64,000 nucleotides of DNA from Euglena gracilis (taxonomy: Eukaryota): NCBI GenBank assembly GCA_039621445.1, contig CP154954.1:32775455-32839454 (forward strand), read 5' to 3'. Under the pieces are notes generated by a model, which worked only from the letters and a program-made list of their open reading frames with translations, made no database searches and was not told the origin of the DNA. Made by a program: the position numbers and the translations under genes. Shown here in pieces: positions 17,701-64,000 of this stretch. Each line of letters begins with the position of its first letter. The stretch's first letter is position 1.

Positions 17701-17749
17701 GATGTTGAGCAGGTCTCCAAAAACGTCAAGGACACTTGGAATTCTTTTC

Positions 17750-18050: not shown

Positions 18051-18222
18051 TACAAAATTCTTGGAATGGTGGTAACACTACTCCACGTATATTCTCGAAT
18101 AGAGGAACATCGTTTGGCAGGTCAGACCAGTAAAAGGTGACTTAGCATCAGCCGCGAATTTTCTGGTGTTTTGGAGAATGCTGTTTACGTCTGTGATATA
18201 GACCCCGCTTTTCGCAGACCTT

Positions 18223-19590: not shown

Positions 19591-19917
19591 CATTACACAG
19601 GCAACCCGGACGAAGGTGATGCCACTTTTCATGGAACCCAAAAGGCTGATGAAGTTGCACGTCGATATGACGCAGCCGACGATATGTTGGATTCTTTTCC
19701 CGTTTCATCGATTTTTCGTTCTTTGCCAGTCTCTCCTATACGGGGGAGAAGGCGGCGAGGCCGTACACCTGGTCCCTGTCGCATTATTGGATCTGTATCT
19801 CCTCCCCACCTCTTCTTCCGCGAATGGGATTGCTCCCAAGATCCTGTATATAGCACGATAGTGCATAGACTGCGCAATGGCGAAGTTGGACATAATTATT
19901 GACTCTTCCCTTTACGG

Positions 19918-33639: not shown

Positions 33640-33790
33640 CCAAGGGTAAAGTGACTTGCTGGTTTTTTTCTGAGTGAAAAATGACCACCCCTCCCGCCCG
33701 GGGGTCACTAAGCAATGGTATGGAAGGGACACCGAGGGCGAAGCAGACAGACCTTTTCAGAAGCCAAAGTGCGGAGCCGGGGTGTCCTTT
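33640..33790. mobile_element. Remnants: one TIR of the cataccattgctta MITE family, plus DIRS ICR/ITR-like fragments
   Basis: taagcaatggtatg at ~33709-33722; gaagggacaccgagggcgaagca and caaagtgcggagccggggtgtcc match the DIRS terminal sequences. Confidence 0.55.
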
Positions 33791-35962: not shown

Positions 35963-37957
35963 ACCGGTTCTGCATCCAGGTTCGCAAAGCGCTTCATGTG
36001 GGCAATGACTTCACATGCCCTCCGCCAGTCACCAGTGCGGTGGCAAATCTCCCAGGCCAGGTCAAAGGTGGCCTCCGACGGCTCAAGTCCGGAGTTCACG
36101 AACTCTTCCCACACCTGCCACCCGTCAAACAACCACCACCATTCCATCGAATTGTCCAAAAAAACGCCGACTACATCGCTGGCTGCTCTCAACAATGCCA
36201 ACAATTCATTGCTATTGTTGCAAATGAAACAGCAAGCCAATCTTTCCAAACGCAGATCCGGCCACAACACTCAAAAAAAAGAATAGGAAACGATGGTGTT
36301 TTGGGGGGAGAACTGTCCCAAAAATAACCCGTAGGGATATCATTTGGGGGGGGGGGGCGATTTAATCTGCCATGGGTTTCTGTAAAAATATGAATACCGT
36401 ACACTCAGTCCAAACGGTTTTAGGTTAAACTTTTTGAAAGAATGAGACCAACTAACAGCAACTATCTTTGAAATTTTTCAAAAGCGATATGCTTGGACGG
36501 TGCAGCTACACATTACAGGTGACAATGCAGCAACAAAATACGCCGTATCAACGGCCATAAAATGCACCAAAATCAGCACAGCGTGCAACATTGGCAGAAA
36601 ACGCAAAACAAACGTCTCCATGGTCAAATTCTTTCTTCCAGGGAACCTTGATGGAGCGCAACAGGGTTGTTTAGAACTTGTTTGGAGGTCTGAAGTACAA
36701 AGTCGCAGTTGAACATCACCAAATCCCATCAAAGAAAATGCCATGCATTTGCATACCTGCAAAGCCTTGGTGTACTGCCCTGACGTCAGGCACACTGCCA
36801 TAAGCCCATCGTATGTTCCTGCACTTGCCACTACTCCTTCTGCAAAAACGACAATACAATGAGAAGACCAACCAGACATCCAACAGATATTTCCGCTGGT
36901 GAACCAGGGATTTTCTTAAGGACCCCCCCGGGGGGGTCCTGCCGGCCAGCTGGAAAAGGTGCTAGTTGGAAAAAGGGTATGGTTTTGGCTGGACCCCCCC
37001 TCCTCCAGGGGGTGGGGGTCCAAGGAGGTGGTTCGAGCCCGGCTGCCGGGCTGGACCCGGCTGGGACCCAAAAACAAGGAAAACAGTTCAAATCCAGCTG
37101 GGATGCATTTTTTCAGCTAAATTTTTGAGGTGAAAAAAAGTCCCAAATATGGCCATTTTTCCCATTTTTGACCCATTTGGTCCAGCCGGGCTTCGCCAGG
37201 CTGCGAAAACTTTATTACCACTCGACCTCCTGGGGGGGGGGGTCCGCAGCCCAGCTGGGAGGTGCTGGCTGGGAAAAAAGGTGCTAGCTAGCTGGACCCC
37301 GGGGGGGGGGGTAGGGGGGTCCAGCTTAAGCAAATCCCTGTGGTGAACACATAAGAAAACAAAAAAATCCTGAACAGAAACATCTTTTATCAGACATCAA
37401 GCAGACACATCTGTTAGAACCATAACTGCAAACATGAACAACCCCCTTTCGTCAGACCAGATCCAAAAACAAGCACCTCTGTGAAAAAAATGCTTTTTTT
37501 TTATCACTTCAGGCAATTTACAAAACTGGTGAAAAAAAAAATAAGGTGAACACAATGTTTTCTTGGTGAGCACATCAATCCTTGAAATGGCCTAAGTCGA
37601 CATGTTTCCCCAAAGTAAAATAATTTGTTTGACCATGTTCCTTGGATTTCGCATTGAGTGTACTGGGATGAAATTTTTTTTGTTTTGAGACCGCCCTTTT
37701 TGCATTCATCAACAGAAGAATGTGGGCCGTGTTGGAAAGATGAATAATTCTCTGTTGGACGGGGATTTGCCACATATCCGCAATTTTCCACAATTTCCTC
37801 AATTTCCTGGAAATTTCCAACTTTCCACATTTCCCAACGTTGGGAACCCCGTCTTTTCAGAATTTCTCAGAACTTTTCAGAATCGAAACAGAACACCATT
37901 CATGCAAGCGACCTTTATCCATCTCCTGTCTCAACAGGAACGCTGCTTCCCAGTGAT
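35963..37957 (-). CDS. Pentatricopeptide-repeat protein, internal exons 37957-37913, 36839-36757, 36114-~35963 (gene extends beyond on both sides)
   Basis: GT-AG joins in compatible phases give DHWEAAFLLRQEMDK/EGVVASAGTYDGLMAVCLTSGQYTKALQ/VWEEFVNSGLEPSEATFDLAWEICHRTGDWRRACEVIAHMKR, i.e. consecutive 35-aa PPR motifs. Confidence 0.75.
36905..37340. mobile_element. MITE with 8-bp TSD (intronic)
   Basis: TIR cagggattttcttaag / cttaagcaaatccctg; TSD TGGTGAAC at 36897-36904 and 37341-37348. Confidence 0.88.
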
Positions 37958-44865: not shown

Positions 44866-47800
44866 TCACAGCTGGAGTTTCTCAAAGCGCAGCTTCAAAA
44901 GTTGTTTCTTCTTCAAGAACTTTGCAGTGTAATCCACGTCCCGTACCACTGAGGGAAGATTTATCTCTCTGACTGACGAGCCAACTTGTAGACGAAGCAC
45001 GTTGGACTTAATGGTGAGGTCAATATCCTGCAGATGCAAAATACTTTGATAAAAATCACACAACAGCACCGTATGATGTAGTAGAGCACAGAATCAAAAA
45101 CAACAGCCATCATTTTGGTAGATAATCTTGGCCAGGTCTTGACCCTCAGGACTCACACTTGAGTTGGGCCATTTTTTAAAGAGCCCTTGACTCCTCCAAA
45201 ATAACCCCCCCCATTTAAACCGACCCCCCTTCTGAACCGACCCACCCTTCCAAACCGACCCATTGCAGAATTTCAACCAAAAAAATAAATAAACCGACCC
45301 ATGGCAAGGTGGATGACAAACATGCACAACATAATGGAAGCCACCAAAGGAAACAGCGTCCATGCTTATTGAATAGTTGGTATTGATGACCCAAAATTAG
45401 TTAAAATTAGGATATTTCACCCAAAATCAGGCATTTGCCTCCAAATTTTGGAGTTTGCACCTCAAATTGGGCATTTTCCTCCGAAACTTTGGTGTTGGAA
45501 CCCAAAAATTACAAAATTAGGTGTTTGCCATCTAAAAATAAAAATTTGCACCCAAAATTTGGCAGTCTGACACCAAAAGTTGGATATTACACCCAAAATT
45601 CAGCATTTGCCCCCGAAAATTCAGAATTTGCATCCCAAATTAGGCATTTGTCACTCAAAGTTAGGAATTGGCCGACCAAATTGGGCATTTGCCAATTGAA
45701 ATTGCCTTGCTAACATCAACCCACTTCCGTCACGCCGTCGGCCAGCCGTGTGCTCCCCCTGAAACCGACCCCCCGTCTAAACCGACCCCCTCCAGGATTT
45801 CCGCCAACCCAAAAGTCCTAAACCGACGGGTCGGTTTAAATGGGGGGGGGGGGTTACATCAAATCAAATTTGTCGTTTCGTTTGTTCTTGGCAAGGGCGG
45901 TCCTCGACGTGGAAAAAAAATTCCTGTCCCAGCACATTCAATGCAAAATGCATAGGAAAAAGGAACAAAAAAATGGCCATATTTTGGCAAAATGGGTCGA
46001 CTTCAGGGAGCAAAAGTGACTTCTGGCATTCTTGGGCCATCTCCAATCCACCCAACATGTCAAAAAATAGCTTTTCAACTTTTTGATTGACCCCATTCGA
46101 TCCCCGGATCCCTTGGGCATGTCCTCAAGGGGCGGTCCTCGAGGGAAAAAGAAACTTCCCGTCCCTCATGAATCGCCCTGGTTCTTGTTTGCGGGTTTTT
46201 GTGTCCCATTTTTCGAGGTCTATGTTGCACTCCTCGATTGGAAAATCCCAACGAGAGAGGCATCCTAGGTTGCTCCAGGGTCAATTCTTAAAATCGAAAA
46301 ATTGTTCAGCAAAAAAATGTTAAAATCTGCGGGGGAAAAGGAGCTTGCAAAGCAAAAAGGGTCCTCGAGCAACAAAAAACCTGTCCGAGCACATTCAAAT
46401 GACAGAAGGATGAAAAATGGCCAAGAAATAGCAATATTTTAGAGGCAAAAACTGTTGTTTTCGTCTGTCAGTTTTTGACCTGGTTCAAGCCCCAGAGTGG
46501 CACTTGAGCGGCCCTCCGGCCCAAGGGCAGGGTTCGATGTCAGAGCAGGTGGGGGGGTCGAACCCCCCCTCCGCACAGCAGGGAAGGGGGGGACACCCCC
46601 CCACCTAAACAGGTGACTGCTGTTTGGCCCGGCGCTTTGCAATTTTTGACCCCCAAAACGGCCATAGGTGCATTTTGGGGCAGGTTTGGGGCAAAAAATT
46701 GTCAAAAATGCAAAAAAAAATTTGGCGCAAAGCGCCGGACCTCAGTTGCACTAAGGCTTCTTGTCTGTTTATGGCCGGCGCTGACTTCGCTTCTGGCCCA
46801 GTTTGTGTGGTGAGTGCCTGGGTACCCCCCGGAGTCGGTCCGTACCCACCTGGCTGGGGGGGGAGGGTCCAGACCCCCCTTCTCCCCTTCTGGTCCAGGG
46901 GGTAGGGGGCACCCCCCATCTGGATGTGGAGCGCCCTCCTTATATTGAACCCTGCCCAAGGGCGGTCCAGGGGCATTCCTTTAGGGGGATAAAACTTCCT
47001 GTCCCATATGGACTGCCGTGTTTGTGTCAGGGCAGCAAAAAAACTCCTCTGTCCCAGCACATTCAGTGCAAACTGCACAGGAAACACGTCTGGAAAAATG
47101 GCCACACTTTGGCAAAAGTGGGTCGACTTTCAGGAAAAGAGTGATTTCTGTGATACTCGAATCCTCTCAAAACGTCAAAGAATGCCTTTTTCAACCTTTG
47201 GCTTTTCAACCTTTTTTTTAAACCCCGCTTGAGCCCCAGTCCGGCCCTTTAACTGACCCTTGGGTCCAGTGGCTGTCCTGAAGGGGCAATCCTCAACAGG
47301 AAAAAAAACACAAATTCCGCCCTCTTCAGAAGCTGCATCCGAGGAGCAACCTGCGGGAGTATTTTGCAATATGTGCTTTTCACATCGTTCCTTATTGGGC
47401 TATTGAACTTTGAAGAGGTATTGCAAAAACCAGCGACCCCCACTAGCAAATCCGCCCCCACCCCCCTCCACCCCCCAACCCTTCAACCCCCCCCCACACA
47501 CTTCACCGCAAATCCCCACTGTTATGCGTTGGGGTGCCATTTCTTGTTTAAAGGAAGTGGGGGAAAAAATGGGCTGCGCCCCCCCTCGGACCACCGGACC
47601 CCCTCCCAACTAACCCTCACTCTCCCCCATCCATTTTCATTGCCGTTTGGGTTTTCGACGTTCCCTAGATATACTGCAAAAATTGGCGCCGGCACTGGCC
47701 AAATGCATCCCAAGTTTTCGTTGTGTATCTCCCATTTCAACAAAAATGCACAATTTTTCCACCCAAAATTTTTCCACTTTTTCTTGCCCTGGGGAGGGGG

Positions 47801-50800
47801 TGACTTCATGTTTGGGGTCATGGGAAACAAGAATGAAGGGAGGGCCCCACATGGCATTTATCTGTGGGTTTGATTATTTTTACGATTATTTGTTTGAAGG
47901 TTTCACAATTCAATTATGAGAACTGCCATTTGTCACTTCACAATACCGCAGCTGTGTTTGTTTTTGCGAGTTTGATCTGCAGCCCGAATTTCACTTACAA
48001 AACTTACGTTTTGGGCAATTGCATGGTAATTGTTTTTTGGAAGGGGAGTGTGTGCGTGGCCAGATTTGAGATTGATTTTTCCAGTAAGATTTGCCAGATT
48101 GAATTGAAACTTGCTTTTTTAAATTTCCAGATTTTGGGGATTTCCATTTTTCATAGGCAAGCTGGCAAACAGTGTACAAATTTGATTACATAAATTACAT
48201 AAATACATTATACATAAATTTATTCTGGACTGGAACTGTCAAGAGGTTACTTTAACCAGCTTTTGAAACTTTGGAAAAATTTCCCACCATTTTTCCTGAA
48301 ATGTTGAGTTTTCCCATCATTGGAATTTCTAAAAATTGTAAAAATTGAAAAAAATTTCATCATCCCCTCCCCCCGTCATTTTCTTTCCCGTCTTTCTGTC
48401 CGGACTGGAGCAGGGGAAGTGAATCACCATCAGGATCTTGTTGTCCAATTGTTCCTCTGCCCAATATTCAATCCATCTGACAGCACACCTGCACACTTTC
48501 ACATTCCGCATAGATGTCAACAAGAACGTGGGTGGCAGTTTCAAGAATGCTGGGTAAAGCATCAACCTGAAGGGCATTGAGCAACGAGAATTGATCTGAT
48601 TCTTCGTGGACACTTGCAACTGTCATAATTCTGCAAAACTGGAAAATTTCATCGTGATGTGAAATGCTTCGATTGGCAACTTCAGGTAAATGAAATCCTT
48701 TGCGAGCAATTTTGGAACTTTGGACTTACAACCAGGTTGTTTTTTTTTACCATCCCCGGGGGGGGGTCCAGAATGCCTTGGGGTGCTTGCACAGGCAGGC
48801 ACTACCCCCCCCCATGGGGGGGTCGGATTTCGGCCTGTGCCCAGGCACATTCCTTTGGAAATAGGCCATTTTTGGCTCCCCGGCGCCAAAGGCGCCGGGG
48901 TCTGTGCCAGGGCACTTTTGGCTGGAATGCCTGCGATTGTCCCTGCCCCCGAGGTATTGCAAACATTGGCGCACCCACTAGCAAATTCGCCCCCCCCCCC
49001 CATTCGCCGGGAGTTCCGAGCAACTTCAGCACTGGGGGGGGGACTGTCGCCCCCCCCGTCTTGAAAAGAACATCATAAAATGTTTTCACTTTTTTGAGCC
49101 CTTCTGGGGTTTGTGCATTGAGCACTGGCCCCTGACGACTCCCCAAAACCCCCCAGGACCCCCCAAGACATATATTGCAAAAACTGGAGCCCACACTGGT
49201 CAAATGTGGGGGGGGGGTGTAGGTCAATGTCTAATGTGGGCTCCAGTTTTTGGAATGTTTTCCCCCAAATGGGTGAATACCCCAAGGTTGGGTTTTGTTT
49301 TTGTATTTTTGGGGGGTCCCAAAATCGGCCCAAGAATTTTGGGGGCGTACCCAAAAATCAAATTTTTGGGTCTCCATTGACGATGAGAGAAAACCACGGG
49401 AAACAATGGTCGACATCCGCAAAGTCCAAAGGGGCTGCCGCTCAGAGTTGTCCTGAACACTCCCCGCCTGCTTGAAACGCTTTCTGGCGTTTTTTTTTCA
49501 ATAGTCAGACCTTCCCCCACCCAGTTAGTCCAGTTAGTTTAGTTAGTACAATTTTGAATCCTGAAATTTTTGGGGGCCACAAGGCCTTTCAAAATGCCCC
49601 AAAATGCAATTTTCTGTTCGAGACATGTAAACCCCCCAAATAATACCCCCCGGGGCGTTGTTTTTTCGCCCGAGGTCCCGGCCCGAGGGGGGGGTATTAT
49701 TCCCCAAAATTTTTCGTTCCGTAGGAGCAAAAATAGTGCCAAAACCCCCCTTTGGGGTCATTTTTTGTACTTTCTCATGAAATTTAGCATTTTTTGGAGG
49801 CCAGATGATTCAGAAAAATCGATTTTTTTCGTACTTCGTTGTCAGAGATTGTGATTTTTACCTACATTTCCAGGTCAAAAATCCGGGCCTCGGTGGCCGA
49901 AGTCGGCCCCCCAGGGGGGGGGGTATTTTTTGGGGGGGGCATTATTTGGGGGGAGGGTTTAGATCACACCCCCCTGCCCCCCCAATCAGAGGCCACAATT
50001 CTGGAGGGCATGTTTTTGATTGTTGTACCATCCCCCCCCGGTGTATAAACACCGACTGCCCCCCCCCGGTGCGCTTCCATCCTTTTGGACGTATTGGACA
50101 GAAATCCACTTATGGCCAGTTTCCACCCCCAGGACCCTGTCCTGGGGGGGTCCTGGGGGGGTCCTGGGGGGGTCCTGGGGGGGTCCTGGGGGGGTGCTGG
50201 GGGGGGTCCTGGGAGGGTCCTGGGGGGGTCCTGGGGGGTCCTGGGAGGGGTCCTTCTACTTTTTGGCAAAAATTTTGCAGCACAAGATGAGGTTATTTTG
50301 AAGCCCGGGGGGGTCCGGGGGGGCGGGAGTCCCCCCGGTAGCGGGCGCCGAAGGCGCCCGGAACTCCACGGTCAGTGGGTACTGTAGCGTGCGGCGGGGC
50401 ATGTGCGACGCCGAGGAGTGGTGTTTCTTCTGCCTCTCTCGGCACCTGATCTGCCGGGACCACAAAGTGGTCATCCGGGGGGGGCCGGAAGGGCCTCCAG
50501 GAGTGAGCGGCACGTATAACCATTGCCCCCGCCCCCCGGCCGAGTGGTCCCCCGCGGCGCGGTCCATGCGAGCGACCCGGGTTCAAACCCCGGTCGGGCA
50601 TGGGGGCACCTCCAGACAGTCCCACCCAGGGTCGAAAAAATAAAAAATAGGCTGTGCTCTGGAATAGTCGGTGCTCTGGATCCACGAGAGGCTCGACAGC
50701 ACCGTCCCGGACGGGTGGTCCACTAACAATAGCACCACTGCTCCCCCACACATGGTGTGTGATGTGCGTCGCGCACCCCTTGCCGGTGGACGCCGAGTTC

Positions 50801-53800
50801 GACGACGACAAGGACCACGACGCCGCCGTACGCGCCCCACCCCGCGCGCCGCACGCACACCGCATCGCATGAACCGGAGAATGGCTGTGTGTTCCCAAAC
50901 GAGTTATTACCCGTCCACCCCGCACAGGGGGCAGGCAGCCTATCGTGGAACGGGGGTTTTGTTCCGAAGAACAAAGCAAGCGGCGGAATCAGATGCCATA
51001 TCTTGTGCAAAAAGCTATGGGGTAGAAATAATGTGGAAAAATGCATACTGCAACTCCTGGCAAAATTTTTGCCCCACAAGACGAGGTTATTTTGAAGACC
51101 GGGGGGGTCCAGGGGGGGGGCGGTAGCCCCCCCCCGGTAGCGGGCGCCGAAGGCGCCCGGAACTCCACGGTCAGTGGGTCCTGTAGGTACCGCCCCCCGG
51201 AAGCTAGAGCAGAAGGGGTCCTGGGGGTCCTGGGGGGGTGCTGGGGTGGTCCTGGGGGGGTCCTGGGGGGGTGGGGTCCTGGGGGGGGTCCTGGGGGGGT
51301 GGGGTCCTGGGGGGGTCCTGGGGGGGGGAAACTGGCCACGACTCCCCGGGGGGGGGGGTTGGGGTGGGTCCGGCTGGACCCCCCCCGGGGGGCCCAGAGG
51401 GGGGTGAGATAACCTTTTTGGCGCCGCAGGCGCAGAAAATTTGGCCTTTTTTTAGGTGGTTAGCTCCCCCTAGCCGAGTCATGGCCAGTTTTCCCCCCCC
51501 CAGGCCCCCCCCAGGACCCCACCCCCCCAGGGCCCCCCCAGGACCCCCCCAGCACCCCCCCAGGACCCCCCCAGGACCCCCCCAGGACCCCCCCAGGACC
51601 CACCGGGGGGCGGTACCCAGATGACCCACTGACCGTGGAGTTCCGGGCGCCTTCGGCGCCCGCTACCGGGGGGGGCTCCCGCCACCCACGGACCCCCCTC
51701 GGGCTTCAAAATAACCTCATCTTGTGCTGCAAAAATTTTGCCAAAAAGTTGCGGGACCCCCCCAGGACCCCCCCAAGACCCCCCCAGGACCCCCCCAGGA
51801 CCCCCCAGGACCCCCCCAGGACCCCCCCAGGACAGGGTCCTGGGGGGGGGGGGAACTGGCCATAAGTGGCTAGGGGTTAAATTTTTCAAAGAGGGGGTCC
51901 CAAAAATACAAATTTTTGGTGTTTTTGGGGGGGGTACCCAAAAAGAAAAATTGGGGGGGGGGACCCAAAACCCAAAACCCAACCTTGAATACCCCTAATA
52001 AGTGCGCAGTGTGCTAAAGACATGGGCGTCGGGGGTCCGGCCCTGGGCAGAGTCCTTGGACTTACGAGGGAGATAGGGTGGTGGCACGGTGGCATGGTGG
52101 CACATGGTAAACTTCGCACGAGGTACTGAAATTCAAGGTGTTCATTTTGGGAGCAAAATGACCCGGAAAAATAATGGCTGTCTGGTTTGCGGTTCAGTGC
52201 CGTTTTGGTTTGGGGCTCCAGGAATAGTTTTCTCACATTTGTGCGAACGGTGCCAACCGCCGGAGACAATTTTCAAACCTTTTAAGGGATTTTTGCCAAC
52301 ACTAACAGTTTCACCTCCAACGCTGATGGACTTTTTTGAAATCGGAGGGTGGACCTCCCCCCCCCCCCCGCCCGTTATTGCATGATGGGGGGAGGTTGAG
52401 CTGGCTGAACCAGGCTGGAGCCCAGAACATGAAAATTCCCCGTGCTCGGAGAGGAATGTATGTTCTCACTGCAGCAGCAGCAAAAAATGTATTGCCAAAG
52501 AAATGTTTTTGAAAATGCTATGAATCTGAACATGGTGAGGAGAACAAGTGACTTTATTCCTTCTTTGCTTTGGGCAATGTCTCGTTGAAATACCCAGGAA
52601 GCCATTTTACGCTTTCGCCAAGGAGGCGATTCCAGGCCACCTGGCCTGTTGAATCCCCACCACAGAGCATTTTGGCCCAGATTCCAGGCGCCAGCACAGA
52701 AAACGAACGTCCCTCCAGTGACCGGATCTTCCGATGTGATGGAGGGATTCGGAGGTGGGGTCCCCACCAGGTGAGTCTGAGGGGGGGTGTTTCGGTGTGG
52801 TGAAAGTCGTCCTTCACTGGGTGTGCCGTGGGTTCTGAGCCTTGGGCACCGTGCCCAGCGCCGGACTCCCGACGCCCATGTCCACCAAAATTAAGTCGGC
52901 AAATCCGCTACCCGGCCGTGTGGTGGCGGGCGTTGTGGAGAGTGAGCTCTTGGGAGGGGTCTTGGGGGGGGGGGGTGGGGGGCGTGAACCTGAAAAAAAT
53001 TCACTGTTCCTGTGTGCATCTTCTGCCTGAATTATGTTGAGGTCATTTGTGGGGTCAAAAAGCAACAACAACAACAACAACAACAACAACGTTAAAAATT
53101 TCTTTGCACAAAAAATTCTGAAAGTGAGCCAAAATTTTCACATTTTAGGATTATCTTTCGGGGTAAAACATCTGAGAATGCAAAATTTTCAAACAAGGGG
53201 GAGGGGTGAGTTAGGGTTAGAGGAAAATAATGCCTTATAATCTTAAAACCCTTGAGAAACCTTAAAAAAAATGTGAGTCGTGGCACCCACCAGTTTTTGG
53301 TGTGGGGTAAATGCCTCCAATCTTTGCAATACCTCCCCCGGACCCCCTTTCCCCATCCCCTCCAAAAATAGAAAATCGAATTTCTCATCTTTTCGCATGT
53401 ATTGCAAAAACTTGGAGGGGTGTGGGGGGATGTGGGGGGATGTATGGGGGGGGGTGGGGAGGTATGGGGGGGGGTGTGGGGGGTATTGCAAAAACTGGCT
53501 CCTACACTAGACATTTACCCCCACACCCCCCACACCCCCCCCACACCCCCCCATATCCCCACACTCAACCAGTGTGCGCTCGGCGCCGGGTGTATTTTGG
53601 ACCCACTTTGGGACCCATATGGGCATACAGGAGGTCCCCCCCCCAAAACCCGCATTTTTTTTTCACACCTTCCAATTTTTCACAATTTTCTCAAAGTTTT
53701 GATTCTCGTACTTTTTTGAAGCAAAAAATGCCATTGAAAATCCAAAAAAATTCGAAGAGAAAAAATGTCAATAAAATTTGAGTGAGCCAAAATTAGGTGC

Positions 53801-56800
53801 TGCTTTTTGACTTTGCACTTTTTTTACCACTCCTAAAAAATACCAACACTTAAACCTGAAATTTTTGGGGCCTACGGCCACCGCGGCGGGGGGGGGGAGG
53901 GGAAGGCTGCGCCCCCCTCCCCCTCCCCCCGTCCCCCCCCCATTATCACTGCCCATTGTTGCAAAAAACGGAAGCCCAGACATTAACCTACACCCCCCCA
54001 CCCCCCCCACACCCCCCCAGACCCCCCCCCGCACCACCCCCCACCCCCCCCCACACTTGGCCAGTGTAGGAGCCAATTTTTGCAATATATGGTATGGGGG
54101 GTGCAGTCTGGGCTTCCGTTTTTTTTTTCTTTTGCAATAATGGGCATGGGTGCGGGGGAGGGACGGGGGGCACAGCCCCCCTCCCCCTGCCGCGGTGGCC
54201 ATAGGCCACGAGACCCCCAACAGTGGCCGTGGGACTTGATAATGTCTGTCTGGGCTGCAATTTTTCACAATAAAATCTAAAAAATTTTGGGTTTAAGGTG
54301 GGTTTTAGGAGCGGTGAAAAAAAATGCAAAATCAAAAAAATTGCACGATATTTTGGCACAATCAAATTATACTGGCATTTTTTCTCTTGGAATTTTCTGG
54401 ATTTTCAATTGCATTTGTTGCTTCAAAAACCTGTGAAAATCAAAACTTTGAGAAAATTGTGAAAATTTTGGAAGTTGTGAAAAAATGTGGTTTTGGGTTC
54501 CTGGGGGGACCTTCTATATGGGGCCCAAAATGGGTCCAAAATACACCCGGCGCCGAGCCCACCCTGGTCAAGGGGGAGGTGTGGGAGGGTGTGGAGGGGT
54601 GTGTGGGGGGGGGGAGTGTATGGGGTGTGGGGGGGGGGGGTGTCCAGGTAAATGTCTCCAGTTTTTGCAACACCTCTCTTTCTGAGTTTGGGTTGAAGAG
54701 ACCATAATCCAGCGATGCCAGAAATCCTTTTTTTCCTTTGGAGTTCGCTTCTTTTTAATTCTGAGATCTCATTTTTCTCAGATTAGGAAAAAAAATTCCA
54801 GAATTATTTTATAAAAAATTTTCAGGTTTTCAAACATAAAACTTTTAAATTCAAATTCAACTTGAATTTAACCCCAAAAAACCACCTCCCCCCCCCCCCC
54901 CCCCCGGCCGAAAAAGTCGTCCCTGGCATCTTGCATTTTTCTTCCCAGAGAAATTATTTTTTGAGGAAAAAATTTGAGTTTTTGCAAAAACTGGAGCCCA
55001 CACTAGACATTTACCACCCCCCCCCCACCCCGAACCCCGAAACAAGCGATTATGGCCTACGGCCCCCAATGGGTCCGGTGGCCTTATTGCAACAGAACTG
55101 GAGCCCAGACGGGACATTAGCATGGCCAACGGCCACCGATGGGGGGTTTGGCAGCCAACGTCCACTGCTGCGGGGAAGATGGGGGGCTGAATTCCCCTTC
55201 CCTGCCGCCCCCCCACCCCCATTATCACTGCCCATTAGAGGTATTGCAAAAACTGGCTCCTACACTAGACATTTACCCCCACACCCCCCCACACCCCCCC
55301 CCACACTTCACCAGTGTGGGTTCGGCGCCGGGTGTATTTTGGACCCATTTTGGGACCTATGTTGGCAAATAGGAGGTCCCTCCAAAACCCGCCCAAAACC
55401 GCATTTTTTTCACACCGTCCAAATTTCACAATTTTCACAAAGGTTTGAATGTCGTAGGGTTTTGAAGCAAAAAACGGTTGAAATCCCAAAAATTTGCCAA
55501 GAGAAAAAATGTCAATAAAATTTGAATGTACCAAAACTTAGGGCAGTTTTTGACTTTGCAGTTTTATCACCGCTCCTGAAAACAACTTAAACCTGAAAAT
55601 TTTGGTATTTTTTTTTCGTGAAAATTATGTTTTTTCCGTGAAAAATTGGGGCCCAGATAGACATTAACAACGCCCACGGCCAACGATGAGGGGTCCGGTG
55701 GCCTACGGCCACCGCGGCGGGGGGGGGAGGGGGGGCAACGCCCCCCCCCTTCCCCCCCCCCCCCCCCTGCCCCCCCACTATCATTGCGCTGTTGCAAAAA
55801 ATTGGAGCCCGGATAGACATTATCAAGGCCCACGGCCACCGATGAGGGCGGCGGGGGGTATTGGGGGGGGGGCTCTGCGCCGCCCCCTCCCCCACCAAAA
55901 TGTCCCGGGCGATGTGCAAGTAATTGCACAAAATTGCAAAAAATTGCACATTTCGGGAAAATCGAAAATTGCACAAAATAGCAAAAATTGCACGGTGCAA
56001 TTACACCCCCCCCACCCCCCCCCCCCCCACCCCCCCCCCCACACTTGTCTAGTGTAGGAGCCAATTTTTGCAATATATGGCCCATTGCTGCAAAAAAACT
56101 GGAGCCCAGACTGGACAATTCCCTGCCCTCCCCCACCCCCTGCCACATTTGACCTGTGTGTGCTCCAATTTTCATTTTTGATTTTTTCCAACAGAGATGA
56201 CAACACAGACAAAAAGGCATTTTTTGTAGTGCCCAGGGTGGCAGGGTGAGTATTTTTGGTCCCCAGAGACGTGAACCACATTCTGAAAGCGGCGTATTTT
56301 AGACTTGGAGCGCCTCCCATTATGGCCGCCCCAGGTCTTGGCTTTTATCCCCCCCCCAAACCCCCACACCCCAAATCGTCCCTTCCCCTGTTTTTCTGGT
56401 TTGTGCGGATTCCTTTTTTTTGCTGTAATCGCTGTGAAATGCGATTTCTTTTTTTTTTGGAGTCACTTGTGGGGTCCAAAAGTAGGAAAAACTTTGGCTT
56501 GGGCACAAAAAACAAAACACAAAAGGCAGTACATAAAATAAATAACATAAAATGCGCCGGCCGGGAATCGAACCCGGGTCGCATCCGTGGCAGGGATGCA
56601 TGATACCTCTACACCACCGGCGCCGGTGGTGAAGGCCGGTAACAACACTGACCAGGACGACTACAACATTGATACACAAAAAAAAACCACACAAACCTCC
56701 TTGATCAGTGGTTTTGACGAAACTTCTTTCATCACTGTGGACGTGGTTGGTTGCTTCGCATCTGCATGAGTAACACAACACCCGGGCAGTTGAATCCGTT

Positions 56801-59800
56801 GTTTGGAAAAGCTGTGGTGACCAAAAGACAATTTTTTGGGATTTTTTTCACCATGAATGTCTCAATATTGAACCCCGATCTGACAATGATATATGACTGG
56901 GGAGCCTTGCCATTTCTGGCCCACCTGCCCTCGTTTTTTTTTGGACCCCAGATGAAAATGCAAAAAAAAGAAGAAAGATTTTCCTTCAAATCCCCCCCCC
57001 CCCACCTGCAGACCCCTGATGCACTGTTTTTTTGGAGGGCCCAAACAGTGAAGGTGCTGATTCTTCCTTTCTTTGACCTCACTGCCAAAAGCAAGTGCTC
57101 AGTGGAGAAAGCAAATTCCACAATTCCACAGCAATTCCCCCCCCAGAGGTCGGACTTGGATTGTGTTACCCCTTAAAAACTCGTCATTAACACTTCAGGT
57201 GCCTTCCTTGCCGAATGGGTATGTTTTTTCCAAGGTGATGATTCCTGGGGGCCTTGGGGGTGGTGTTGGGGGTGGTCGTTGGAGGACAGTACTCAATCCA
57301 AACAGCAGAGGAGTCTCAAAAAAGTAAAAATAGACAGGTTTCCAATTTTTTTCCGTCACGTGCGAAGTGATCTACAACGTCACATATCTGCAACAATGTT
57401 GAACAACCACGGGCTTTTCCGTTTGCTGTAGTCTTCGGCCATTATTGTCTTTTCGCTCTCATTGGTTGTGTTGTCACCATTCTGATGCCTTTACTTGAAT
57501 GCGCCTTTGCCCAATGGACACACCCACAATCCAGGTTTGTTGCTCAGGCTGTGGATTGGACGGAGTCTGGGTGGCTATGTTGGTCAGACTCCCCAGCACC
57601 GACTGGCTCTGGTACAGGGCAGACGAGAGCAAATTAACAACACCCAAAAACCCTGTGGCGAAAACCGGGCTTTTATTTTATTTACAATCCCGCGGGGTTT
57701 CGCCTTTGTGCCATGGAGCCACACGACATCAACTGGGGAAAGGTTTTAGGAACATTTGACCCGAAGCACGTGATGGGTTTGCCAAGAGGCAAGAATAAAA
57801 CCCACCGCCCACTTGAAAAACCCCGGGGGTGGGAAACTTGCCATGACTCGCATTTTTTTAAAGGTTTCTGAAGGCCTTTAAGATTTCAAGGCATTGTTCT
57901 CCAACCCGGCGTGGAACGGGGTCCAAAATCAAAAAGTCGAATTGCTCATCTTTTCAAGTTTTGGTTGAAGAGAAAATGCTCCAGCGATGCCAGAAATCGT
58001 TGTTTTCCTTTCGAGTTCGCTTCTTTTTGATTTTGCGATTTCATTTTTTTGCTCAAATTTACAGAATTGTTTTTTAAAGTTTTTTTTAAAGGTTTTTAAA
58101 ACTTTTAATTTTAAATTCAACTTGAATTTGAACTTCATTTTTCTCAAGGCAATTTTCTTCATGTTTTTTTGGGGGTTTTTTAGCTTTTTTCAGGCGGTTC
58201 CAAGAAGCGCCTGGTGGGGTGTGGATGGGGGTGTGAATGCTGTGGTGCCAACATCATAAAATGTCGGTGTTTTTTTCCCCACTTTTTTGAGCCCTTCTGT
58301 GGTTTGTGTATTTAGCACTGTCGTCCCCTGACGACTCCCCAAGACCTCCCAGAACCCCCCCGGAGGACCCCCCAAGACATATATTGCAAAAACTGGAGCC
58401 CACACTGGTCAAATGTGGGGGTGGGTGGGGGGGTTGGCTATAATAATGTCTGGGCTCCAGTTTTTTTTTGCAATAATGAGCAATAATAATGGAGGGACGC
58501 ACCCCCCCCCCTGCCATTGGTTACCGGACACCCCATCGGTGGCCGGTGGAGTGAGTGTCCACCGACTTGTTTCGGGGTTCGGGGTGGGGGGGGGGTGCAG
58601 GCAAAGTGTGGGCTTCAGTTTTTGCAAATACCTCAAATTTTTACGTTGAAAAATAATTACTCTGGGAAGGAATGCAAGATGCCACGGCGACTTCTTTGGC
58701 CGGAAAAGGTCCAAAAACCGATCGTTGGCAATTTGTGACCGACCATCATCGAAAGAGCTTTTGACAAATTTTGCCAAATGGCCACTTGGGGAGGTTTGGC
58801 GGATTACGACCAACAATTCATTGACGTTTAAAATCCCCCATGTGTTGCAAAAACTGGAGCCCACACTGGTCAATTATGGGGGGGTGTGGGGGGGTGGGGG
58901 GGGGTGGGGGGGTGGGGGTAAATGTCTTGTGAGGGCTCCAGTTTTTGCAAAACCTCAAAAATTGGCACCTCCCCACCCACCTCCCACCCACTCCACCCCC
59001 CACTGACGCGTGTGGTGGGGGTGCCATTTCTCCAAAAGATGGCGAAAGTGGGGGAATTGTTGGCTGTGCGTGGGGGGGGCACCCCCCCACCCCGCAAATA
59101 ACAGTCAAAAAGCAACTTTCGAACTTTTTGAAAAAACGTCATTTTTCTGTAATTTTCTGGTGCAGTCGGCCGCGTCGGCGCTCCAAAATAGAGCTCTGCC
59201 TCGCATTGATATCGGCGATCCTTTATCCTTTATCCTGATTGCTGCGAAGGGCGGTGGTCGGAAAGGACAATTTTGGCCGTGGCGGGCATGCATAAAACGC
59301 AGCAGTTGCCGTCCGGGGGCGCAAAATACCACTTTGGTAACAGACGCCCCAAAAAAGTTTATTTTGCTGTCATTTTCTGTGCAAAGCATTCTTTACCTTT
59401 TTGACCCCACAATTCAACTACAGAAAAGCGCATTTCACAGCGATTCCAAAAATGCACACACGGCCCCCCCCCCCAACGCCCTCCCCCCACTCCCCCCAAC
59501 ACCCACCAAACCAAAGCTGGTGAAGGTGCCAATTTTGCAATCTATGGCACCCCCTCGTGATAGTTGAAGAAATACCTTTGGACTTTCAGGGGCAAATGTT
59601 CTTCCCCTCTCTCTGAACCAAGAAATGACCCAATTAAGAAAAAAAAGTTGGAGCGATTCTGAACAGTGAAAAACACACACAAAAAGGAATTTTTTTCGGG
59701 TTCCCAGCTCAGGCAACGTGTGCCAAACTTTGCAATTTGTGGACTTTGCATTCACAGACTTTGTTTGGTCTCTCTTGTTGTGAGCCACAGATCCAGGACC

Positions 59801-62800
59801 TCAGTGTGCTGAGGCACCACAAAAAATGCAAAACGACCATGTTGGACACCTGCTGGGGGGACTTCCCCAAGCCTGGGCTGCGGGCTGGAGCAAGGCGGCA
59901 AGCCTTCGCGATGACCGAAACGGCATGCTGCTCCGTGAGTGTCGAGGTGAACAAATCAATCAACTCTTGCTTGAACCTGATGGAGGGCATTTTGCCCAGT
60001 GGGCAGAGGTATCGCAAAAATTGCACTAGCAAATCCCCTCACCCCCCACCCGCCACTGAGGCCAGCGGAGGCGCCAATCCATGCTCCTTTTGTGACAATT
60101 CTGCTTTGGTTTGGTGGTGTTTAATGAGCAGTTGTGTTGGCTGAGATCACCAGCAGGCAGGCCAAGGCGACATCACAACCATGCACCAATGAGCACGGGG
60201 GAAAAAATCCCTTTTGCAGCACTCGATAAGTAATCCACGAGGAAAATGGTCAAAAACAATGGCCATGGCAAACCAGGTGCGCGGCAGGTCCCTCAAAAAG
60301 CCATTAAAAGCCTCAAAGAATGCCAGAATGCCTAAAAAAGCACTCAAACACATTAAAAACGAGGTATTGCAAAAACTGCCTTCTTCTTGACGTTTACCCC
60401 CACACCCCCCCATGCCCCCCACACCCCCCAAAACACCCCCATCCCCCCCCCCCACCCCCCCCCCACACCCCCCCACCTCCCCACTCCCCACCCCCCACAC
60501 TTGACCAGTGTGGAGTGTGGGCTCGGCGCCGGGTGTATTTTGGACCCACTTTGGGACCCATATGGGCATAAAGGAGGTCCCCTCCAAACCCCCCGAAACC
60601 GCATTTTTTTCACACCTTCCATTTTTTTCACAATTTTCTCAAAGTTTTGAATATTTTTGAAGCAAAAAATGCCATTGAAAATCCAAAAAAATTCCAAGAC
60701 AAACAATTTCAATAAAATTTGACTGTGCCAAAATTTGGTGCAATTTGTTTGACTTTGCACTTTTTTTCACCTCTCCTAAAAAACACCAACACTTAAACCT
60801 GAAATTTTTGATATTTCTATTGTGTAAATAAACCCCCCCCCCAAATAATAAATCCCCCCCAAATAATAAACCCCCCCTGAGGACCGACTTCGGCCGCCCA
60901 AATAATAACCCCCCCCTCTGGCAGGTGTGAGGGCAAAGAAAAACAGAGCCAAAAATTAGCAGAAATGTTGCAAAAAAAATCACAAAAATGGATCAAATTG
61001 GTGCAGAAAAAATGCCAAAAAAGCACCCAGTTTTCAAAAAAGCCCAAAAATGCCAAAAAAGTGACCATTGGAGCCTGTGGAGGGGTTTTCGGGTCTAATT
61101 TTGACTTCGAAATTTTTGCCCAAATAATAACCCCCCCCCAAATAATAAACCCCCCCTGGACCCCGACTTCGAGTGTCCAAATAATAAACCGGGGGGGTTT
61201 ATTATTTGGGGGGGTTATTGTTTTTTTCGTGAAAATTGGAGCCCAGACAGAGGCATTTCCAAGCCCATGGCCACCGATGGGGGGTCCTTTGGCCTATGGC
61301 CACCGCGGCAGGGGGGGAGGGGACCGGTGGCCCATGGCCACCGATGGGGGGTCCGGTGGCCCACGGCCACCGCGCAGGGGGGGGGGGGCTGCGCCCCCCA
61401 CTCCCCCCGCCCCCCCCAATATCACTACCCATTGTTAAAAAAAACCGAAGCCCAGACTAGAAATTTACCTAGACCCCCCCCACACCCCCCATGACACCAT
61501 CCCCCCCGCAGTGCCCCCATGAGGAACTTCTGCAACCTCCTCATCCGCCCACTCCACCCGGGGGGTGGGGGAAATTGATATCGGAGGCCTTCGGAAAAAT
61601 TGCGGAAAAATTGCGGAAATTGCGGAAAAATTGCGGAAAAATTGATATCGGGAACATACACCTTTCTGCTTGAGGGGGCTGAGAAATTTTTCAAATTCAA
61701 ATTTTCAAATTTTTCAATCGTGAGGTTTGGAGAAACCTTTGAATTGCAACATGTGTCTTGACGCTGGCATTGAACAACACTTTGCTGCTTCACCCCCACG
61801 CCCTTTCCCTCTCTTTCTTTTGTTGGCAGGTGCACCTGTGAGAAAAATTGGTAAACTGGGGGGAAAACAACAGAACACAATAGCACACCTGTTGATCCAT
61901 TTGAACAATGGCTTGAACTCATTGCATCTTCCATCTTTGGCGGTGGGGGAAAAAATTCTGTGAAAAAAAATGGTAAAAAATTGCGGAAAAATTGCGGGAA
62001 ATTGCGGGAAATTACAGAAATTGCGGAAAATTGCTGAAATTGCAGAAAAATTGCGGGTATCAATTTCCCCCCCCCTGCCCTGCCCCGGGTCCTGCAACGC
62101 CAACCCCAGCCCGCCGGCCAGCTGCACGATCCCCGGCTGCGGCTACTCGCCCCCTCTTGGAGGGCGGGCCAGCCCCAGGGGGCAGGCCTGTCCCTCATCC
62201 CCTCTGCCCCCTCTACACCGCCTCTGAGAACGCACTCGGCCTGCTGGGACCCGGGACCAACCCGTGCCGTTGCCCATGCCCGCTGCCGGGCAGCCGGTGT
62301 CGGACGTGGCTCACCCCACTCATTCCCACCACCCCACCCCTGTACCACGCTCATCACGGAGCGGCATCCGGGCCCCGGGTAGGCCCCTTGAAGGCAGGGC
62401 CATAGTGGCCCTGTCGACCTTGGGCATTGCAGTGATGTGGGGCACTTCTAATCCTAATCCTGATCCCACACCCCCCACACCCCCCACACCCCTCCCACAC
62501 TTGACCAGTGTACGAGCCAGTTTTGCAATATATGGATGCCAGACATTTTCCAGTGGTGTTGGCTTGTTTTTGCTGATATTTAATTTCTCAATATGTTTTA
62601 AAAAAAGCCATTGAAAAATTGCTAAAATGCCTGTGAAAAAATGGTCCTAACGTGTGAAATTTTCGGCCATGCCCAGGCCCCCACTTCCTCCCTGCTTTTG
62701 GCCAGCAATTAGCCTAGAGGTGGTCTTTGGGGGGTGGGTTTTGACCAAAAAAAACTTCCTGTCTCGAGAGGACTGCACACCATGGCTCACGGTCTGCCTG

Positions 62801-63599
62801 TCGCAGCACATCGTCGTGGACATACCATTGCTTAGCGACCCGGGGGGGGGGGAGGGGGTCGCTTTCCACTCTGAAAAACCCAGTCAGTCACTTTACCCCC
62901 CTTTACTTTACTTTACGGGGGGGGGGGATTGGCCACTCCTCAGGAGGCAATGAACATTTGCCAAAAAGTCTCAAAAAAATCCAAAAAAATTACAGCGCCT
63001 TCGGCGCCAGGCCACTCACATTTTCATTTTCGGGCCAACCCCACCCCCGGGGGGGGGGGGGCTCTTGGCGAAAAAAAACCAGTCAGTCACTCTGACTACT
63101 TTACCCGGGGGGTAAAGTAGGACAGGTGTTAAGCAATGGTATGGTCGTGGACCACGACGTCCACTTGGCCAGACACAATCGGGGACATGAAGAGTGGGAC
63201 CTCCCCCTCCCCTGTGGAAGAAGAAGGAAATACCCGTAATGAATAATTGTCGATCCATGTGTGCCGGGCTCGTATGCCACCACAATGCACCCCCTCCCGT
63301 GTCCGCCTAGCACTCAGGTCACAAAGGTTGCAGTTTGAACAGGGGGGCCGAACTTATTTGCGAAAACAGGACAAAGCCGGAAACGGTATTTTTAGGCTTT
63401 TCGGGGGGTTTCCCACAAGCATTGGCCGAAAGGACCTTCGTTGGCACCCTGCCGTAGCCAGTCCAGGATGAGCCCCTGCATCCCACACACCGGGTTTGAA
63501 CTTTGCCATCTTTTGGGATCCACAGACGTTGATGAGGATCGACTCCTCCTTGTTGGTGGACAACGGGCAGCGAAGGCCCCATCTGGCCACGGACCAAGT
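44866..63599 (-). CDS. PIH1-domain protein (PIH1-N + CS domain; PIH1D2-like co-chaperone/dynein assembly factor family). Exons 63599-63491, 63211-63152+62820-62781, 59976-59850, 57608-57524, 56761-56697, 48566-48489, 45027-44866; 5' exons further right
   Basis: Phase-compatible GT-AG joins give ...ESILINVCGSQKMAKFKP/GEGEVPLFMSPIVSGQVDVVV^HDDVLRQADREP/WFKQELIDLF...PQQ/SQSVLGSL...WIV/DAKQ...KPLIKE/VDALPSILETATHVLVDIYAECESVQ/DIDLTIKSNVLRL...NLP...TAKFLKKKQLLKLRFEKLQL*. It has the INVC, DV, FK..LI.L, KPLI.E and AKF.KK motifs typical of PIH1 proteins and no internal stops. Confidence 0.85.
46528..46954. mobile_element. MITE with 8-bp TSD (intronic); related sequence at ~4290-4650
   Basis: TIR cagggttcgatgt / atattgaaccctg; TSD CCCAAGGG at 46520-46527 and 46955-46962. 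Confidence 0.85.
47842..48182 (-). repeat. Diverged inverted copy of part of the 1.33-kb tandem unit (29476-29828)
   Basis: gggccccacatggcatttatctgtgg ... caagctggcaaacagtgtacaa match the reverse complement of the unit. Confidence 0.75.
50106..51869. mobile_element. Foldback-like element with long inverted arms and (GGGGGGGTCCT)n arrays
   Basis: 50106-50380 is an inverted repeat of ~51625-51869; 51060-51185 is an internal direct copy of part of the left arm. Confidence 0.7.
50531..50600 (+). pseudogene. Degenerate tRNA-like sequence (Gly-like 3' half)
   Basis: A-box-like ggccgagtgg, and gcgacccgggttcaaaccccggtcgggca resembles the T arm/acceptor of the tRNA-Gly at 56553; anticodon arm poorly paired. 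Confidence 0.45.
56553..56623 (-). tRNA. trnG-GCC: tRNA-Gly(GCC), intronless, inside a PIH1 gene intron
   Basis: gcgccggtggtgtagaggtatcatgcatccctGCCacggatgcgacccgggttcgattcccggccggcgca forms a full cloverleaf (acceptor gcgccgg/ccggcgc, anticodon stem catcc/ggatg, TTCGA loop), followed by a TTTT Pol III terminator. Confidence 0.95.
61559..62077. mobile_element. MITE-like element of the (C)AGGGGG...CCCCCTG family with (ttgcggaaa)n arrays
   Basis: TIR ggggaaattgata / tatcaatttcccc; TSD not clear. Confidence 0.6.
62821..63143. mobile_element. 323-bp MITE with 8-bp TSD inserted in a coding exon of the PIH1 gene
   Basis: 14-bp perfect TIR cataccattgctta / taagcaatggtatg; TSD GTCGTGGA at 62813-62820 and 63144-63151. 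Confidence 0.93.
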
Positions 63600-64000
63600 C
63601 TTGTGCAAAATTTGTCGAAACACATGTGATAGCAACGATTCCAGAGCCGAGGAACGCAAACAAACTTTGCGGCTGTCTGTGAACGTCCAGACAACGAAGC
63701 AGCCCGGTCAGGGGTGATATCAGCGTTGTCCGCTGGCGGGGAGTTCTGCGACGAATTCTTGAGAAAGTCTCTGCCACCCTGCAGTGAGCAATGGGCAGCA
63801 ATAATGGGGGGTGCGGGGGGGGGGGGAGGCGCAGTCCCCCCCCCCGGTTGCCCTAGGCCACCGGACCCCCCATTGGTGCCGTAGGCCTTGATAATGTCTG
63901 TCTGGGCTCCAGTTTTTCACAAAAAAAAGCTCAAAAATTTCAGGTTTTTGTGTTAGTGGTTTTTAGGGGGAGGGGGTGAAAAAAAATGCAAAGTCAAAAA

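Follow-up and report, generated by a model that had tools for sequence, protein, structure and literature searches.

How does a protein-coding exon of Euglena gracilis that is interrupted by a transposon-like element still give rise to an uninterrupted message? The question is raised by a 323-bp insertion in the 64,000 nucleotides of contig CP154954.1 analysed here (hereafter the window). An origin of euglenid nonconventional introns from MITEs is a published hypothesis, put forward in 2014, 2024 and 2025 (PMC3935182, PMC11282704, PMC12501133). In 2013 no transposable element had yet been identified in any euglenid genome (PMC3935182), and the 2025 paper calls the origin of these introns 'unclear' and puts MITE-like elements forward as a suggestion (PMC12501133). 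A preliminary description, made from the letters of the window alone, had read the locus as a possible case of a DNA transposon turning into a nonconventional intron, an interpretation supported by the analysis below. We consider it likely that a MITE-like class II element inserted in an exon of an expressed E. gracilis PIH1-like gene and is removed as a nonconventional intron.

A TIR element splits a coding exon

The gene and the element are arranged as follows.

44869..64000, minus strand: host gene, PIH1-like; its first exon(s) lie past the window end
63144..63210, minus strand: upstream half of the split exon (…GEGEVPLFMSPIVSGQVDVVVHD), from RNA joints
62779..62812, minus strand: downstream half of the split exon (DVLRQADREPW), 34 nt, from RNA joints
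62821..63143, minus strand: TIR element, MITE-like, non-coding, 323 bp, inside a coding exon of the minus-strand gene
63130..63143, minus strand: TIR, 5' side in gene orientation (CATACCATTGCTTA), 14/14 complementary
62821..62834, minus strand: TIR, 3' side in gene orientation, 14/14 complementary
63144..63151, minus strand: upstream TSD copy (TCCACGAC on the gene strand), perfect 8-nt direct repeat
62813..62820, minus strand: downstream TSD copy, perfect 8-nt direct repeat

The host gene matches the transcript-derived protein EG_transcript_17147 (P0001, eukprot; 296 aa), which is 100% identical to exon 59850-59972. Eight complete introns of the gene lie in the window, six of them GT-AG and two nonconventional. 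A second gene was sought to widen the sample of introns, but the open reading frame 35875-36270(-) had no protein match at E ≤ 1e-5 among longer proteins. The preliminary description spoke of a split PIH1 coding sequence; the split coding exon stands, and the PIH1 label is sub-threshold. PF08190 (E 0.012, 15.6 bits, cut-off 24) and PF18201 (E 0.0019, 19.1 bits, cut-off 23.3) match the host protein in the canonical order, and 3/3 and 2/3 homologues, respectively, also match them weakly. As neither Pfam domain reaches its gathering score in the host protein, we name it PIH1-like on this sub-threshold similarity. A PDB profile search with three homologues gave 0 matches at E ≤ 1, and Pfam searches of the single stop-to-stop frames around the element gave no PIH1 match. 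The element junction falls within the weak PIH1 N-terminal match (residues 108-146), in an ungapped block, QVDVVVHxDVLRQA, that is conserved in 3/3 homologues.

Each TIR arm is 14 nt long (62821-62834 and 63130-63143); the two are 100% complementary and separated by 295 nt. The TSD, GTCGTGGA on the plus strand and TCCACGAC on the gene strand, matches at 8/8 positions, and the anatomy given in the preliminary description is thereby confirmed. In structure the element agrees with a MITE, as it has a TIR (14/14) adjoining a TSD (8/8), is small (323 bp) and lacks coding sequence. An 8-bp TSD is compatible with the hAT, P or Merlin superfamilies. Of perfect inverted-repeat pairs that measure 10 bp or more and lie 40-3000 nt apart, the window holds 706, and the element's TIR is the only one of them that is flanked by an 8-nt direct repeat; flanking repeats of 0, 1, 2, 3, 4, 5, 7 and 8 nt were found at 482, 147, 54, 15, 4, 1, 2 and 1 pairs, respectively, and we estimate that about 0.01 pairs with a flank repeat of at least 8 nt would be expected (706 x 4^-8). 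With as many as 2 mismatches allowed, the TIR motif has 4 matches in the window against 0.29 expected, and 0/100 shuffles reach 4. This anatomy is far beyond chance. The TIR stem is retained in the minimum-free-energy fold (-144.1 kcal/mol, z -6.1), which 0/100 shuffles equalled. Rfam gave no match at E ≤ 1 in 62700-63800, and a tRNA is its sole match over the whole window.

Sequences related to the element

One further locus in the window carries an element end.

33644..33722, plus strand: second in-window locus with an element end, ~79-nt terminal part, 81% identity

The 14-nt terminus at this locus is identical to that of the element. DNA run X1, the only DNA run compared and one whose contigs show presence and not absence, includes a contig in which the first TIR base (62821) is joined to another flank, as well as four contigs that skip 62892-63119 and so imply a 95-nt short form of the element. 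Word depth over the element is ~63,500, compared with 71-76 in adjacent unique bins, a value that does not equal copy number. Taken together, the partial copy and the contigs hint that the element is multi-copy.

These sequences bear on whether the insert is filler DNA from the repair of a double-strand break and not a transposon. Break repair leaves short direct repeats too and has been proposed for the gapC intron of E. agilis (PMC4770533), and neither an autonomous partner nor a transposase was found for the element. Filler DNA is nonetheless a very unlikely explanation, given that perfect 14-bp inverted termini adjoin the direct repeat, that the identical terminus and the similar 79-nt end recur at 33644-33722, and that DNA contigs include the short form as well as junctions of other flanks with the precise end of the TIR.

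Three other sequences were considered. The stretch 32831-33722 might be a full second copy, but its left end has only 12 nt in common with the TIR and it is without flanking duplication. A candidate 2.7-kb TIR pair at 49283-51987 has only low-complexity reading frames. The sole match of the 20-nt terminal pattern in a metagenome scan (L001) was rejected as a chance match, having 62.5% G+C and being otherwise dissimilar to the window.

The element is precisely absent from mature mRNA

The RNA joint 62812->63144 skips 331 nt (62813-63143), that is the element and one TSD copy, and is slidable by 9 nt. It is found in 11 reads (7+4; 11 starts) of run X21 and in 19 reads (18+1; 16 starts) of run X24, which are raw-read RNA runs from different studies. 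In X15 one contig has the 331-nt skip (1426 nt, depth 377.8), and every other intron is absent from it too. None of the sequencing runs listed as containing the sequence is catalogued as RNA; the read evidence is that of the two raw-read runs and the X15 contig. The independently assembled EG_transcript_17147 carries the seamless VDVVVHDDVLRQ. The seamless RNA junction for which the preliminary description had suggested a check is thus present in all four sources, and exact removal from mature mRNA is one mark of a euglenid nonconventional intron.

Removal of the 331 nt restores the reading frame, which stays open through all 7 joined exons. With the element left in place, the frame runs through ...VVVHDHTIA to a TAA stop, four codons into the element. 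Both outcomes had been anticipated from the letters of the window. By rough arithmetic, RNA depth shows no excess in that part of bin 62676-62942 which the element occupies, and this points to little retention. Neither a cryptic GT-AG joint, which had been named as a possible refutation, nor a back-joint indicative of circular intron RNA is found among the 15 of 125 joints listed. Nonconventional introns are released as full-length RNA circles once the conventional introns have been removed.

The seamless reads might come from an empty-site allele or a paralogue, the element copy itself being a null allele. At three sites next to the element, a share of the RNA reads (19-52% in each case) has a letter other than the window's: 62808 A>G, 63180 C>T, 63195 T>C. 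At least two haplotypes are therefore expressed, and the spliced reads cannot be traced to the allele that carries the element. Several downstream sites also distinguish EG_transcript_17147 and the X15 contig from the window, and contigs can drop variants. X1, however, covers both flanks of the element (depth 82.5 at 62808, 67 at 63180), yet it yields 0 contigs with the 331-nt skip and has only the window's letters at all three sites; the empty-site source that the preliminary description had allowed for did not appear in this run. No listed X1 contig bridges an exon-TIR boundary. The spliced X15 contig has the window's letters beside the joint, and most RNA reads agree with the window at 62808, 63180 and 63195. 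On this evidence, we regard a null allele as an unlikely source of the seamless reads.

Alternatively, the element could be excised precisely from the DNA of some cells, the mRNA then being transcribed from the repaired gene. Class II elements do excise, and excision usually leaves footprints in place of an exactly restored site, which counts against this explanation. E. gracilis has been reported to contain extrachromosomal circular DNA (bioRxiv 10.1101/2023.11.29.569251), but the joined form occurs in all 3 RNA data sets and in 0 contigs of the DNA run X1, and excision at the DNA level appears extremely improbable.

Cut registers and a second nonconventional intron

Ten equivalent registers, from 62813-63143 to 62822-63152, give one and the same product. 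GT-AG ends (or GT/GC-AG, or AT-AC) occur in 0/10 registers, the best being GT..AT, as the preliminary description had also found. That single register, beginning with GT, is what speaks for removal by the ordinary spliceosome. Its 3' end is AT and not AG, its donor GTCCA is unlike the GTGTG consensus of E. gracilis (PMC11170887), the acceptor is without a preceding C-rich tract, and a 14-bp terminal helix lies at the exact nonconventional spacing. Spliceosomal removal is accordingly hard to credit. For removal as a nonconventional intron, one register stands out.

62816..63146, minus strand: 331 nt removed in the +4/-6 helix register; ends GA..AC, the next exon begins with G

This register alone (1/10) sets the helix at +4/-6, with 14 Watson-Crick pairs and spacers of 3 nt and 5 nt, which bears out the earlier proposal that 3 nt before the TIR and 5 nt after it make up one TSD. 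Both junctions are pyrimidine|purine, and a purine opens the downstream exon. Spacers of 3 nt and 5-6 nt, a paired helix and an exon-start purine have been established by knock-in in E. gracilis (PMC12501133), and we infer that 62816-63146 is the register that is cut and that the helix takes part in the reaction.

The published code, 5'-N3CDG/CH'GN5-6|R, with CDG at +4..+6 and CH'G at -8..-6 or -9..-7, is obeyed by 61.2% of E. agilis nonconventional introns (PMC12501133). It fits 0/10 registers of the element, of which only the spacers and the exon-start purine agree with it; the triplets of register 62816-63146 (+4..+6 / -8..-6) are CAT/ATG, outside CDG/CH'G. Single substitutions in CAG or CTG abolish splicing in the knock-in assay (PMC12501133), and in the light of these results the CAT/ATG triplets count against the reading as nonconventional splicing.

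The host gene contains another intron of this type.

63585..63709, minus strand: nonconventional intron, 125 nt; GA..CC ends on the gene strand, from RNA joints

Its sequence, GAC-CGG…CCG-TGGCC|A, is an exact fit to the published code (CGG/CCG, N5, A). The joint 63584->63710 (both=0) is found in 39 reads of X21, 20 reads of X24 and the X15 contig, and in 0 contigs of X1. The claim that all other joins of the gene are canonical was therefore in error. An exon candidate, PGCFVVWTFTDSRK, was rejected, as the stretch belongs to this intron.

A proposed route from transposon to intron

A sequence of events can be proposed in which a non-autonomous class II transposon (323 bp, 14-bp TIRs, 8-bp TSD) landed in the coding exon. 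The host gene would stay functional because processing of its pre-mRNA treats the insert like a euglenid nonconventional intron. Pairing of the TIRs into a perfect helix of 14 bp would draw the exon ends close to each other, and the nonconventional machinery would cut 3 nt upstream of the helix at the donor and 5 nt downstream of it at the acceptor. Since 3 + 5 equals the 8-bp TSD, the element and one TSD copy (331 nt) would be removed and the pre-insertion coding sequence regained. RNA that stays unspliced would encounter the TAA and presumably be degraded. The insertion may be recent, in view of its perfect TIR and TSD.

More tentatively, the 3-nt and 5-nt spacers may exist because their sum is the 8-bp TSD of one kind of TIR transposon, in which case the machinery would be one of precise excision at the RNA level. 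This possibility fits two independent young introns, the element and gapC intron 4 of E. agilis, both of which have 8-nt repeats. No statement of the link was found in the literature searched, including the accessible parts of PMC12501133 and PMC11282704. If it holds, elements with pairing TIRs, whether or not they have the CAG/CTG code, would never show in mRNA, even when newly landed in an exon, and the rise of nonconventional introns to ~70% of Euglena introns would be explained.

The locus offers a concrete case with no hallmark lost: the TIRs and the TSD are there, the position is mid-exon and within a conserved domain, and RNA proves exact removal. The MITE-origin hypothesis becomes testable with it, by tracing the family, by comparing junction-repeat lengths with 8 nt and by the knock-in assay. 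The element is also a natural exception to the CDG/CH'G code and suggests that a long perfect helix may replace the conserved triplets.

Comparison with known introns and introners

Spliceosomal introners have reportedly been described from Micromonas, dinoflagellates and others (by Huff in 2016 and Gozashti in 2022). As is proposed for the element, they are DNA transposons that become introns on insertion, the TSD making excision exact (PMC11282704), but they supply or co-opt GT-AG sites, of which the element has none. An introner family comprises many similar copies, each an intron of a different gene; RNA evidence of removal here comes from the single copy in the PIH1-like gene. The introners of Amoebophrya resemble it in being non-GT-AG, in carrying TIRs and TSDs and in their precise removal, and they are multi-copy there; they differ in their TSDs of 3-5 nt, in belonging to a lineage related to dinoflagellates and in the apparent absence of U1 snRNA (PMC11282704).

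Euglenid nonconventional introns (Tessier, Canaday, Milanowski; Nomura et al. 2025, PMC12501133) share with the element the lack of GT-AG ends, exact removal from mRNA, borders slidable through direct repeats, a terminal helix set in from the donor end by 3 nt and from the acceptor end by 5 nt, a purine as the first letter of the next exon and residence in genes that also have GT-AG introns. The element departs from them in having CAT/ATG for CDG/CH'G, a perfect 14-bp TIR helix and a full 8-nt repeat, and in that parts of its sequence recur at another place in the window and among DNA contigs. A precedent is the recently gained intron 4 of gapC in E. agilis ACOI 323, which is nonconventional and strain-specific and has direct repeats of 8 nt (Milanowski et al. 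2016, PMC4770533). There, presence and absence among strains were shown and break repair was proposed, whereas the TIRs and the other copies of the element point to transposition. Because the MITE hypothesis and the E. agilis intron have already been published, the element is a clean new example and not a new kind.

Anatomy of the element

The MITE-like element lies in mid-exon of a minus-strand gene. A repeat search delimited it as follows:

62821-62834 and 63130-63143: arms of the terminal inverted repeat (TIR), 14 nt, 100% complementary
62813-62820 and 63144-63151: exact 8-nt direct repeat (target-site duplication, TSD), bordering the 323-bp element

On the gene strand (-) the order is ...GTGGACGTCGTGG, TSD TCCACGAC, element (CATACCATTGCTTA ... 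TAAGCAATGGTATG), TSD TCCACGAC, GATGTG.... The length of 323 bp, the 14-bp TIRs and the perfect 8-bp TSD are those of the preliminary description, whose observation of the element is confirmed. With up to two mismatches allowed, the TIR motif has four matches in the window against 0.29 expected, a number reached by none of 100 shuffles. A census of the window collected all perfect inverted-repeat pairs of 10 bp or more lying 40-3000 nt apart (n = 706). The direct repeats flanking these pairs were 0 nt long in 482 pairs, 1 in 147, 2 in 54, 3 in 15, 4 in 4, 5 in 1, 7 in 2 and 8 in 1. This fall-off matches the chance prediction, and the single 8-nt flanking repeat belongs to the element at 62821-63143. 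TIRs that abut an 8-bp duplication are the classical signature of a transposon. An 8-bp TSD is compatible with hAT, P or Merlin, and the TIR gives no choice among the three. No Rfam family was found in the element region (62700-63800) at E ≤ 1.

The host gene

The translation of exon 59850-59972 (-) is 100% identical to one protein, P0001 (296 aa, eukprot EG_transcript_17147), which we take to be from Euglena gracilis given its 'EG' prefix. According to tblastn with P0001 and reading of the junctions, the gene runs on the minus strand from 44869 to beyond 64000, the first ~35 residues being encoded beyond the window. Pfam matches to PIH1 N-terminal and PIH1 CS-like domains are in canonical order but both sub-threshold, and the gene is therefore termed PIH1-like. 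The insertion site falls inside a conserved block, QVDVVVHxDVLRQA, and the alignment with two homologues (65% and 47% identity) is gap-free across it. A GT-AG intron of ~8.1 kb in the PIH1-like gene harbours a same-strand tRNA-Gly(GCC) gene at 56553-56623 (-) (Rfam 62.8 bits, also ARAGORN).

Exact removal of the element in RNA

Reads or contigs from four sources were mapped to 56001-64000: raw RNA reads of two different studies (X21 and X24), a contig set presumed to be RNA (X15) and another presumed to be DNA (X1). A joint from 62812 to 63144, which skips 331 nt and leaves nine letters that fit either side, was found in 11 X21 reads (11 starts), 19 X24 reads (16 starts) and one X15 contig (1426 nt, depth 377.8). 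Since this contig lacks every other intron, it is RNA-derived; X1 spans intron DNA contiguously and is thus DNA. No X1 contig carries the joint, with both flanks covered. The seamless junction that the preliminary description proposed to look for in RNA therefore occurs in X21, X24 and X15, and its sequence VDVVVHDDVLRQ is present in P0001. Frame restoration by the 331-nt removal was also borne out, as the seven joint-defined exons put together form a single frame open all through. Retention brings a TAA four codons into the element, again as foreseen. By rough arithmetic from the depth table, RNA depth in bin 62676-62942 does not exceed the share of its 34-nt exon, so there is no sign of substantial retention of the element.

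At 62808 (A>G), 63180 (C>T) and 63195 (T>C), beside the element, each variant letter is present in 19-52% of RNA reads. At least two haplotypes are expressed here, so the spliced reads are not phaseable to the filled allele, and the remaining doubt is that they may derive from an allele with an empty site, the DNA side being a single run (X1) in the form of contigs. However, the joined form is absent from X1, which has exclusively the window letters at these three positions, and the spliced X15 contig carries the window letters at the same positions.

RNA or DNA letters differ from the exons of the window at 56718, 56735, 56739, 56751, 57557, 59955, 62808, 63180 and 63195. The letter combinations across 56718-63195 need at least three haplotypes, as would fit a genome that is polyploid or highly heterozygous.

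Other introns of the gene

Five further introns are defined by RNA joints:

63585-63709 (-): nonconventional intron, 125 nt, GA..CC ends, zero slide
63211-63489 (-): GT..AG intron (CT..AC on +)
59975-62778 (-): GT..AG intron (CT..AC on +)
57609-59849 (-): GT..AG intron (CT..AC on +)
56762-57523 (-): GT..AG intron (CT..AC on +)

Two introns farther downstream are GT-AG by sequence. The preliminary description had all other joins of the gene as canonical, which is wrong for 63585-63709; its removal is documented by 39 X21 reads, 20 X24 reads and the X15 contig, and by none of the X1 contigs. Nonconventional introns thus make up two of the eight complete introns of the gene in the window.

Position 63781 is G in the window and X1. 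RNA has C there throughout (38/38 X21 reads, 19/19 X24 reads, the X15 contig), and the window frame gives Q for an E of P0001 (63778-63790). RNA editing at 63781 is not the likely explanation. The upstream exon, outside the window, apparently ends in a near-copy (10/11 nt) of the intron 3' end, so the aligner probably overran the true CAG| acceptor at 63779/63778 and produced the mismatch. The near-copy and the intron 3' end would then make up a further direct repeat bordering an intron.

In the GT-AG intron of 2.8 kb, the stretch 60273-62141 is extremely abundant repeat DNA (DNA word depth 145,000-370,000 vs 40-80 in unique parts) and carries several short tandem arrays. In another intron of the gene (49283-51987), two perfect inverted repeats of 15 bp stand 2705 nt apart and are flanked by a direct repeat of 7 nt. 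This may be another TIR element; no obvious transposase was found in it, the frames being of low complexity.

Possible other copies of the element and other repeats

The terminal 79 nt of the element recur at 33644-33722 with 81% identity and an identical 14-nt end, and weaker pieces lie at 3639-3783. In X1, one contig links the first TIR base (62821) to another flank, and four contigs skip 62892-63119 (228 nt), which indicates a 95-nt short form elsewhere in the genome. X1 word depth is ~63,500 over the element against 71-76 in neighbouring unique bins, a value inflated by G/C runs that does not give copy number. Support for further copies is thus partial. The skipped piece is itself delimited by perfect 12-bp inverted repeats (62890-62901 and 63107-63118) and contains a duplicate of a ~60-nt sub-terminal module, so that the element looks composite or nested.

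By eye, a ~30-nt direct repeat occurs at 33138-33170 and 33719-33752, the latter right after the second element end (33722), with an inverted copy near 33421-33450; together these are possibly a larger composite repeat. Just upstream of this element end, three near-identical open frames at a spacing of ~1.3 kb (29281-29571, 30451-30980 and 31777-32226) form a tandem repeat unit. Several long open frames resemble, by eye, retroelement proteins: those at 17400-21000 include a stretch like reverse transcriptase and integrase (~18.2-19.9 kb), and two others of similar appearance lie at 7250-7860 and 12250-14400 (~7.3-7.9 and 12.3-14.4 kb).

Register and comparison with known nonconventional introns

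The 331-nt removal has ten possible registers, none of them GT-AG, as the preliminary description had stated. Only register 62816-63146 places a helix at +4/-6: the 14 TIR pairs begin exactly 3 nt in from the donor end and stop 5 nt short of the acceptor end, and this register alone matches the proposed geometry in which 3 nt and 5 nt add up to the 8-bp TSD. It has pyrimidine|purine at both junctions, and the downstream exon begins with G. The TIR stem is kept in the minimum-free-energy fold of the region (-144.1 kcal/mol, z -6.1). Together with an RNA joint that has no X1 counterpart, this register supports the reading of a transposon removed as a nonconventional intron.

From knock-in experiments in E. 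gracilis, Nomura et al. (2025) derived the code 5'-N3CDG/CH'GN5-6|R, with a donor spacer of strictly 3 nt, an acceptor spacer of 5-6 nt and a requirement for base pairing behind the triplets; in E. agilis, 61.2% of the nonconventional introns have it (PMC12501133). The 125-nt intron 63585-63709 is in exact agreement with it (GAC-CGG...CCG-TGGCC|A). The element conforms in spacers, helix and purine, but its triplets are CAT/ATG rather than CDG/CH'G in every register, so that it is a naturally occurring intron which the published code does not cover. Its long perfect helix may compensate for the missing triplets.

Milanowski et al. (2014; PMC3935182) put forward MITEs as the source of nonconventional introns. 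The proposal came up again in a 2024 review, whose drawing places TIRs at +4..+6/-8..-6 and borders them with TSD-like repeats at the intron ends (PMC11282704), and once more in the PNAS discussion of 2025, for which the 'origins ... remain unclear' (PMC12501133). A strain-specific new nonconventional intron with eight-nucleotide direct repeats in E. agilis gapC was read by its authors as break repair (Milanowski et al. 2016; PMC4770533). The literature search brought up no paper on a member of a defined transposon family that serves as a nonconventional intron in Euglena, and no statement linking 3 + 5 nt to the 8-bp TSD. The locus is a well-preserved case of an intron type already known, involves no new mechanism, and directly supports the published MITE-origin hypothesis.
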